IMG/VR virus record: IMGVR_UViG_2693429662_000020
Location: 1 to 5,205 of that record
Length of the DNA: 5,205 bases
Reading direction: 5' to 3' (one strand)
Source of the DNA: a virus
Lineage: Duplodnaviria > Heunggongvirae > Uroviricota > Caudoviricetes
Positions 3,865-5,205 of the stretch are shown piece by piece. Numbering within the stretch: the first letter of the stretch is position 1; every line of letters starts with the position of its first letter. The notes beneath the pieces were generated by a model. The model had not been told where the DNA came from. It did not search any database and saw nothing but the letters and a program-made list of their open reading frames with translations. The position numbers were made by a program, and so were the translations under genes.

Positions 3865-3887
3865 CATAAGCGCTAACTTAAGGGTTG
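3865..3887. repeat. IS186 terminal inverted repeat (transposase-distal end)
   Basis: Exact 23/23 reverse-complement match to 5181-5203. Confidence 0.9.
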
Positions 3888-4035
3888 AACCATCTGAAGA
3901 ATGCGACGCCTCGGTGCCTCGTTAAGACGATGCCTCGCGTTCTTCAATTGCGTTTTGTAGGCTGTCAGGGATACTGTCCCACGAATGGCCACCTGTAAGC
4001 TCCAGATGACCATTTTTGTTATTCTCCACAACGAG

Positions 4036-5154
4036 TTAGTTCTTCTTTTCGGATCCGGCACTTCTGGGGGGGAAATCCAGCGATGGCTGGATTATGTCGT
4101 CAATTAAAAATGCGGCGAGTAGATTAGCAAATATCCACGCTTTCGCGAGTTCAGGTTCCTTTGCACGCAAAGCATCCAGGTGCAGCAAACTTTTGAGCCG
4201 CTTAAAAGCCAGTTCAATTTGCCATCGCAGACGGTAACAATCAGCCACTTGCTCTGCTGAATATTCATCTTCCGGTAATGATGTTAGCAATAGCACATGG
4301 CCCGCTGCTTCCAGCGTTTCCGCCTGAACTACTCGTCCTTTTCGACGATTCTCGCTGAGCAGTCGGGTTTTACTGATTAATGCTTTTTCGGGAGGAAGTG
4401 ATACGGCAATGAGACGTGCCGGAAAGGGAGCTCCGGCTTTTTTATTACCTGAATTGCCTATCATTACAGTGGTTTCACCGTTCTTACCGCAATCCAGCCC
4501 GCGCAGAAAACCCATCATGTCAAAGCGCATTCCTTCTGCAGTTAACCAGCGCAATCCTCGCCAGTGAACCCGGACGATATAATCAGCTTCTCCAAAAGCA
4601 AGTGAGCGGATACATTCGGGACGCGAACCGAATCCCCGGTCAGCAATGCGTATCTCGTCTGCCGTTTGCGCAAATCGGTCCAGCCGTTCAGCGTCTCTGC
4701 TGTCGGTTAGCTCAAAATCAGTGAACTGACAGGTATGAGGATCATATCCCATATGTAGTCGCCATTCAGCGCTGCCGCCCCCGGGCGCACTGATTGCTGT
4801 TCCATCGACAAGACGCAATCTCTTTCCGCTTGTACAACCCGTAACTGCGGCGCGTACAGCAAGTGTTTGTGCGGCAAGTATGCCAAACCAGTCGGCGGCA
4901 TTCCGCAGCCGCTTCAGGAGAGCCACGTCAGATAATGTTGCAACGTCATGGAGCTGAGCCCATGCAGTGACTTCACGTAATGACATCCCCCCGGGGCCGT
5001 AAGCCAGCCCCAGACGTAGCAGAGTTGCAGCATCACGAATTTCGCGGCGGCGGGTTAGAGCCCCGGCATTACGTGCCGAAGTATCCAGTTCTTCGGGCTT
5101 ACCAATATGGGCCAGAATTGCTGACCAGTTATCGTGAGAGTAATTCATCGGCAC
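4036..5154 (-). CDS. insL: IS186 transposase InsL (IS4-family DDE transposase)
   Basis: Translation MPMNYSHDNWSAILAHIGKPEELDTSARNAGALTRRREIRDAATLLRLGLAYGPGGMSLREV... matches the E. coli IS186 InsL protein as I recall it. The IS4-family signature YRLRWQIELAFKRLK and an ADRGFG motif are present. The annotated InsL start is probably the Met at 5146-5148 (MNYSHD...). Confidence 0.95.
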   Translation of the reverse strand: MPMNYSHDNWSAILAHIGKPEELDTSARNAGALTRRREIRDAATLLRLGLAYGPGGMSLREVTAWAQLHDVATLSDVALLKRLRNAADWFGILAAQTLAVRAAVTGCTSGKRLRLVDGTAISAPGGGSAEWRLHMGYDPHTCQFTDFELTDSRDAERLDRFAQTADEIRIADRGFGSRPECIRSLAFGEADYIVRVHWRGLRWLTAEGMRFDMMGFLRGLDCGKNGETTVMIGNSGNKKAGAPFPARLIAVSLPPEKALISKTRLLSENRRKGRVVQAETLEAAGHVLLLTSLPEDEYSAEQVADCYRLRWQIELAFKRLKSLLHLDALRAKEPELAKAWIFANLLAAFLIDDIIQPSLDFPPRSAGSEKKN

Positions 5155-5180
5155 GTTAAATCATATCAGGCGTAATACCA

Positions 5181-5203
5181 CAACCCTTAAGTTAGCGCTT
5201 ATG
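5181..5203. repeat. IS186 terminal inverted repeat (transposase-proximal end)
   Basis: Reverse complement of 3865-3887. Confidence 0.9.
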
Positions 5204-5205
5204 GG

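Follow-up and report, generated by a model that had tools for sequence, protein, structure and literature searches.

An IS186 insertion in a tRNA-Arg gene of a lambdoid prophage late leader, probably close to neutral for Q-dependent late transcription

The stretch of prophage DNA analyzed here (the window, 5205 bp in full) ends in a complete copy of IS186 that has destroyed a phage-borne tRNA-Arg(UCG) gene. We consider it probable that IS186 entered a consensus target here in the ordinary way, and that the tRNA was lost while the late genes would still be coupled to the Q antiterminator and the effect on late transcription would be near neutral. In the mechanism proposed, a canonical and presumably active IS186 would have moved by ordinary cut-and-paste transposition into a preferred target composed of a G-run, a spacer and a C-run, and its landing in the T-stem and T-loop of tRNA-Arg(UCG) would have generated an 11-bp duplication. 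The gene hit is the middle member of a tRNA-Ile / tRNA-Arg(UCG) / tRNA-Arg(UCU) cluster situated in the long leader of a Q-dependent late operon, and the host element is a lambdoid, Stx-phage-like prophage devoid of stx. The insertion is an ordinary case of a known kind and a further example of IS186 at its consensus target.

The identity of the inserted element is confirmed far beyond chance. All 1339 of its 1339 nucleotides match the copies present in E. coli C (L013) and in CP55_Sichuan (L002), and the transposase shows 0 differences from the coding sequence annotated WP_001300563.1 in E. coli C. The element also displays the hallmarks by which IS186 is recognized: a length of ~1.34 kb with perfect 23-bp repeats, a single 370-aa DDE transposase, near-identity to the reference, and a G-run/spacer/C-run target with a direct duplication of 10-11 bp, both copies of which are visible in a second genome carrying the same locus (L004, described below). 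An earlier note on this DNA had recognized an IS186 at positions 3865-5205 with its transposase oriented as the late genes. The assignment holds, since a complete canonical element is found by repeats, transposase and nucleotide identity alike, and so does the orientation, which is shared with tRNA-Arg(UCU), nanS-p, the holin gene and ydfR. The range stands at its start, 3865; the element ends at 5203, and the last two bases of the window are flanking DNA. These two bases, GG, follow this end in all IS186 copies examined because of the target preference of the element, and they were accordingly dropped as a sign of simple insertion in the source genome. The features of the window are collected in Table 1.

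Table 1. Features of the 5205-bp window, in order of position; strand as read in the window
Feature	Position	Strand	Remarks
End of IS1 copy, between ydfR and the lysozyme gene	1..127	.	IS1-less relatives match the window from base 128 on
ydfR-like DUF1327 gene	291..635	-	PF07041, E=7e-43
Class II holin gene (P21 S type)	640..855	-	71 aa; PF04971, E=9e-33
nanS-p type sialate O-acetylesterase gene (late gene)	1006..2862	-	618 aa; DUF1737, SASA and DUF6645 domains
IraM/PmrD-like gene (moron), opposite strand	3123..3458	+	111 aa; annotated anti-adapter protein IraM in L001; PF11183 PmrD on record
STnc100-family sRNA homologue, late leader	3484..3673	-	Rfam RF02076, 132.4 bits, E=5.7e-30
Terminator-like hairpin ending the STnc100 homologue	3493..3514	-	Consensus scan
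Terminator-like hairpin and T8 run, just after tRNA-Arg(UCU)	3718..3735	-	Consensus scan
Intact tRNA-Arg(UCU) (argO type), first intact gene downstream of the IS	3750..3826	-	ARAGORN; Rfam tRNA model 70.1 bits
3' fragment (nt 53-77 of 77) of disrupted tRNA-Arg(UCG)	3840..3864	-	Reverse complement GGTTCAAGTCCCCGATGGCGGTCCA
Complete IS186 (IS4 family)	3865..5203	-	1339 bp; transposase reads in the late-gene direction
IS186 terminal inverted repeat, downstream side with respect to late transcription	3865..3887	.	CATAAGCGCTAACTTAAGGGTTG, 23 nt
IS186 transposase gene (insL type), intact	4036..5148	-	370 aa; PF01609 DDE_Tnp_1, E=1.6e-26
IS186 terminal inverted repeat, upstream, Q-proximal side	5181..5203	.	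Reverse complement of 3865-3887, 23/23
Two flanking bases GG	5204..5205	.	Fits the start of the second target-duplication copy; uninformative

The target of the insertion is GGGGTTCAAGTCCCC, the T-arm of tRNA-Arg(UCG), which in its T-stem and T-loop takes the form GGGG-TTCAAGT-CCCC. The 25 nucleotides that adjoin the element in the window, GGTTCAAGTCCCCGATGGCGGTCCA in the tRNA sense, equal the 3' end of the intact tRNA-Arg(tcg) gene at 8947-9023 of an uninterrupted relative (L005), and window positions 3854-3864 represent one copy of the 11-bp target duplication, the other side showing GG alone. In L004 both halves of the gene are present, such that nt 1-63 of tRNA-Arg(UCG) are followed by IS186 and then by nt 53-77, with the 11-bp duplication GGTTCAAGTCC on both sides of the element. 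A consensus target has reportedly been formulated for IS186, and the sites occupied by other copies in our comparison have the same form: GGGTTTACCC in yeaR, GGAGCAATCC near hokE, GGGCGGGTCC in L002, L016 and L017, and GGCGCATACCC in L015. When 21.9 kb of the uninterrupted prophage in L005 were searched for sites of the form GGGG-N3-7-CCCC, a single one was found, the T-arm of tRNA-Arg(UCG); as the sole consensus IS186 target in ~22 kb, the T-arm completely explains the choice of site. For two unrelated IS186 copies, at yeaR in E. coli C and at hokE in O104:H4, BLAST matches ran 20-30 nt past the ends of the element and had raised the suspicion of a shared flank, which was rejected, as the resemblance arises from the preference of the element for G-run/C-run targets.

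The window is the entire draft contig CYDN01000127.1 of GCA_001284585.1, which starts 127 nt inside an IS1 element and ends 2 nt past IS186. Because it ends at the point beyond which IS186 copies no longer share flanking sequence, its own upstream neighbor is unreadable in the source genome. A closely related locus, L004 (GCA_040813315.1, a 5.29-Mb contig), holds all 5205 bases with 2 mismatches (99.96% identity), the two IS junctions included, and extends further in either direction. Except for IS186 and IS1, it is collinear with the IS-free prophage of L003 at 99.7-99.9% over 21.8 kb. The IS1 copy in L004 measures 768 bp, is bracketed by the 9-bp duplication GGCGACGGT, and has the lysozyme gene as its next neighbor. 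The collinearity of L004 with L003, together with the target duplications, therefore identifies both IS186 and IS1 as simple insertions.

In L004, which served as a stand-in for the sequence beyond position 5205, the order of features in the direction of late transcription is Q, PR', tR', an ORF of 65 aa, a hairpin, an N6/N4 DNA methylase gene, tRNA-Ile, the split tRNA-Arg(UCG) and tRNA-Arg(UCU). The Q gene (5019-5840 of L004) encodes a protein of 273 aa that matches PF03589 (E=1e-49) and the lambda Q structures 7UBM (PDB, E=3e-39) and 4MO1. The promoter region aligns with lambda PR' (GGTAAATTTG...AACGATGGG, in which AACGATGGG is the pause element), the conserved positions being TTGA..GGTAAATT..AACGATGGG; on this sequence evidence it comprises a TAAATT -10 element and an AACGAT pause element. 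A candidate tR', consisting of a hairpin and a T-run, follows PR' at 5923-5938, a second terminator-like hairpin stands after the 65-aa ORF at 6251-6268, and tRNA-Ile(CAU) occupies 7514-7589 (all coordinates of L004). In L004, and equally in the uninterrupted prophages of L001, L003 and L005, the late strand carries Q, the lambda-like PR' and tR' at a distance of 1.7-1.8 kb upstream from the tRNA cluster. With Q immediately upstream of the late promoter in L004, and with holin, ydfR, lysozyme, Rz, terminase, portal and capsid genes further along the same strand, the locus has by sequence the makeup of a lambdoid Q-dependent late operon. The three tightly spaced tRNAs between Q/PR' and the late genes (CAU, UCG, UCU) likewise correspond to the Stx-phage-type ileZ-argN-argO cluster; all three are intact in L001, L003 and L005, and in the window the UCU gene alone is intact, the UCG gene being split.

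These observations bear directly on what the earlier note had supposed about the upstream region. Its proposals that Q and the late promoter lie upstream of the tRNA cluster in this phage type, and that both fall outside the window, are borne out by the four loci and by the extent of the contig. Its placement of the IS between Q with its promoter and the tRNAs, nanS-p and lysis genes is correct for tRNA-Arg(UCU), nanS-p and the lysis genes; the element in fact sits inside the cluster, with tRNA-Ile and the 5' 63 nt of tRNA-Arg(UCG) remaining on the Q side. Its further expectation, that late expression would be attenuated and the prophage defective or grounded, finds no support in the evidence on Q processivity, on native hairpins, on the weak terminator of IS186 and on phage Sp5 that is laid out below.

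The alternative that survives best, though we judge it unlikely, holds that the prophage was already non-functional when IS186 arrived, in which case the element would represent a neutral hit in decaying DNA, with no appreciable effect on late expression. The IS1 between ydfR and the lysozyme gene lends this idea some weight, as it is found also in the IS186-free relatives L005, L006 and L010 and IS186 must therefore have arrived after it; moreover, the part of the prophage inspected amounts to ~22 kb. The IS1 is, however, intergenic and flanked by a clean 9-bp duplication, and the 22 kb of L004, spanning Q, the lysis cassette, terminase, portal and capsid genes, are collinear with IS-free L003 and have their ORFs intact. 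The exact conservation of the nanS-p protein in at least 24 contigs also speaks against decay. The prophage could nonetheless be defective for reasons unrelated to IS186, and the two insertion sequences, which together add 2.1 kb, could affect packaging if the phage is near its capsid limit.

A second alternative, which we regard as improbable, casts IS186 as a polar block: tRNA-Arg(UCU), nanS-p and the lysis and structural genes would lose their coupling to Q/PR', late expression would be attenuated, and the prophage would be grounded. The geometry required for such a block does exist, as the element sits between Q/PR' and all late protein genes. A consensus scan of the late strand, covering positions 100-5205 of the window and 5700-7700 of L004, gave no sigma-70-like site and hence offered no obvious alternative promoter between the IS and the lysis genes; the same scan misses PR' itself (8/12 matches) and is therefore too strict to exclude promoters. 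Nor is any viable IS186-bearing phage on record: among 50,697 phage records there was 1 match, an unverified 5-kb contig of low coverage. This lone match was set aside, since its IS186 is inserted in unrelated DNA and it says nothing on phage viability.

Several lines of evidence weigh against polarity. Once loaded with Q, RNA polymerase disregards pause sites and terminators, and it does so processively across tens of thousands of nucleotides (Yin, Kaelber and Ebright, bioRxiv 10.1101/651190). The uninterrupted leader from PR' to nanS-p already contains four terminator-like hairpins (tR', one after the 65-aa ORF, one after tRNA-Arg(UCU), and one at the end of the STnc100 homologue), and late expression is therefore dependent on Q with or without the IS. 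Antitermination is known from classical lambda genetics to suppress the polarity of insertion sequences. Polarity calls for efficient terminators in the sense direction and a transcript lacking antitermination; the transcript interrupted here is the one that Q antiterminates, and the intrinsic-terminator scan of the IS186 sense strand yielded a single weak candidate with a 5-bp stem (4148-4135), located inside the transposase gene and far from convincing. In the case of Sp5 of the O157 strain Sakai, an IS occupies the equivalent interval upstream of the lysis region, yet Sp5 is the dominant mitomycin-induced phage, is fully inducible, yields abundant particles and is transferred to K-12 (PMC2669165). 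Additionally, Stx2a phages commonly have IS629 inserted in their late region (PMC4587872). In the literature we found no study of IS186 features that impede Q-loaded polymerase, such as roadblocks or unusual structures, and nothing relevant on IS186 outward promoters, IS186 polarity or IS186 in prophage tRNA genes. On the sequence features of the leader and by analogy with Sp5, the uncoupling of late genes by IS186 is thus graded as unlikely rather than refuted. Under the preferred reading of an ordinary and near-neutral insertion, polymerase carrying Q from PR' would, after induction, read across the 1.34 kb of IS186 as it would across the four native hairpins; the late genes would stay coupled to Q, and the insertion would be close to neutral for late transcription.

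A third alternative, that IS186 marks a rearrangement breakpoint in the source genome (a deletion, an inversion or recombination with another IS186) with unrelated DNA past 5205 and Q severed, is very improbable: the contig does stop 2 nt after the IS at a GG common to all IS186 copies examined, and the exact tRNA/IS186 junction had 0 matches among GTDB representatives (one genome per species) and was absent from 5426 complete E. coli genomes in a search with both junctions, but L004, which matches the contig from end to end at 99.96% identity, has IS186 and IS1 at identical sites and shows a simple insertion with an 11-bp duplication, and a short-read assembler would be expected to stop once it has crossed a multicopy IS.

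The clearest consequence of the insertion concerns the tRNAs themselves. The tRNA-Arg(UCG) gene is destroyed, and the cost proposed would be the loss of a tRNA that reads CGA and CGG. These two codons together amount to 17.7 per 1000 codons in the late genes read, about twice the E. coli average; with usage this high, the loss of tRNA-Arg(UCG) makes some translational cost possible. A second effect may fall on tRNA-Arg(UCU). A candidate tRNA promoter, TTGCAG-17-TATTAT, lies just 5' of tRNA-Ile at 7476-7504 of L004; it falls below the threshold of the promoter scan and is kept in L002 in a different upstream context. If this candidate is a constitutive promoter that drives the cluster in lysogens, then tRNA-Arg(UCU) has probably been cut off from it, and in an uninduced lysogen would rely on weak read-through from the IS. 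Such read-through, which the earlier note had also raised, is plausible because a consensus scan of the sense strand detected no convincing terminator between the transposase stop at 4036 and position 3827.

As a routine case of IS186 hitting a prophage, the finding has little import beyond annotation. It does bear on the prediction of prophage viability, and of toxin or esterase expression, from sequence in Stx-like phages, for which a 1.3-kb IS in a Q-dependent leader is no proof of a dead prophage. Other prophages have taken independent hits at the equivalent position, and short-read assemblies will therefore tend to break there. A broader and quite improbable proposal is that phage tRNA genes are natural landing pads for IS186, in that the T-arm of a tRNA, where a G4/C4 stem encloses the invariant 7-nt loop, supplies a ready-made target. 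Under this proposal the sense-oriented IS, lying in the Q-antiterminated leader of a still-inducible phage, would for that reason be strongly transcribed at induction, would be packaged with the phage, and in lysogens would drive tRNA-Arg(UCU) weakly and constitutively. If the proposal were true, the phage would serve to carry IS186 from one host to another.

Comparisons with characterized systems place this locus among well-known themes, with variations. The late switch resembles that of lambda, in that Q matches lambda Q structures and PR', with its TAAATT -10 and AACGAT elements, is followed by an intrinsic terminator. It differs in that Q, at 273 aa, has an inserted segment relative to lambda Q, and in that ~6 kb separate the switch from the lysis genes, the interval being filled, as in Stx phages, by a methylase gene, three tRNAs, an sRNA, a reverse-strand moron and nanS-p. 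An experimental parallel is Sp5 of Sakai (Asadulghani et al. 2009, PMC2669165), also a lambdoid phage whose late leader is of the tRNA and nanS-p type; its Q-dependent late unit contains an IS of ~1.3 kb in the interval from Q/PR' to the lysis genes. The Sp5 insertion involves another element, lies downstream of stx2 and is not in a tRNA gene; moreover, its induction, particles and transfer are experimental results, whereas the present prophage is known from sequence alone.

IS186 itself occupies an equivalent place in other lambdoid prophages in 9 of the 5426 complete E. coli genomes. In L002, L016 and L017, the element stands directly after the prophage tRNA-Ile and before tRNA-Arg(UCU), in the same orientation and with Q upstream, as in the present case. 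The target there is a different one, GGGGGCGGGTCCCC, with the duplication GGGCGGGTCC, in a degenerate tRNA-like sequence for which ARAGORN calls no tRNA when the site is reconstructed. Because the targets differ, these copies represent an independent event rather than the same insertion. Finally, the lon promoter of E. coli is described as an IS186 hot spot (saiSree, Reddy and Gowrishankar 2001, J Bacteriol 183:6943; cited in PMC3045373 and PMC11702832). The two sites share the element, the target composed of a G-run, a short spacer and a C-run, the duplication of 10-11 bp, and a liability to repeated hits. They differ in what is struck and what is lost, which at lon is a promoter and its function and here is the T-arm of a prophage tRNA and with it the tRNA.

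The IS186 insertion point coincides exactly with the sole GGGG-N3-7-CCCC site found in 21.9 kb of uninterrupted prophage segment, which lies in the T-arm of tRNA-Arg(UCG). IS1 sits in the intergenic interval between ydfR and the lysozyme gene, and because it is also carried by three loci that are free of IS186 (L005, L006 and L010), its insertion is older than that of IS186. The window (1-5205) is the entire draft contig CYDN01000127.1 (GCA_001284585.1), and as it starts with 127 nt of IS1 and stops 2 nt beyond IS186, each of its ends marks a point where the assembly broke off at a repeat, not a biological boundary.

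Within the late leader, a homologue of STnc100 is flanked by tRNA-Arg(UCU) and an IraM/PmrD-like gene, and the match ends in a GC-rich hairpin. The IraM/PmrD-like gene is preceded by an AT-rich region and resembles a moron driven by a promoter of its own; the window and the sister locus L004 differ at two positions in all, one of which (3291) falls inside this gene. The tRNA cluster may have its own constitutive promoter, as judged from a candidate motif, TTGC(A/G)G-17-TATTAT, that ends 9 nt 5' of tRNA-Ile and is kept in two prophages (L004 and L002) whose upstream sequences are completely different. In its early region, as read in the IS-free relative L003, the same prophage encodes a second Q-like protein of 173 aa (PF06530, Phage_antitermQ); the three reverse-strand genes that follow (213, 142 and 363 aa) had no Pfam matches and may form a moron or defence cassette.

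Features and their coordinates in the window, the sister locus (L004), relatives with intact tRNAs (L003, L005) and other lambdoid prophages with IS186 (L002, L016, L017)
Feature	Position	Strand or orientation	Details
IS1	window 1-127; L004 12736-13503	opposite to late genes	768 bp; 9-bp duplication GGCGACGGT
IraM/PmrD-like gene	window 3123-3458	+	111 aa; antisense to late operon
STnc100 homologue	window 3484-3673	-	strong Rfam match, 132 bits, E=6e-30
T-arm target site	L005 8997-9011		corresponds to window 3851-3864 together with the missing flank
Candidate promoter	L004 7476-7504; L002 9385-9415 (- strand)		
IS186 after tRNA-Ile	L002 7885-9223; L016 2664-4001; L017 2664-4002		
Second Q-like gene	L003 1327-1848		
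Genes after second Q-like gene	L003 1845-3995	reverse	

In the phage collection, the sole IS186 was that of OR844776.1 (L015, 1183-2521), a 5.1-kb low-coverage contig labelled UNVERIFIED_ORG, where the element has unrelated flanks and a target-site duplication of GGCGCATACCC; this record is probably host DNA carried over in a phage preparation. Among complete E. coli genomes, nine carry IS186 immediately after a prophage tRNA-Ile, all with the identical 10-bp duplication GGGCGGGTCC, and ARAGORN called no tRNA in the reconstructed uninterrupted target of these insertions. The surrounding prophages are mosaic, differing in their Q-region genes, in the presence or absence of a methylase and in their downstream morons, which suggests either that recombination has relocated the tRNA::IS186 module or that insertion at this site occurred more than once.
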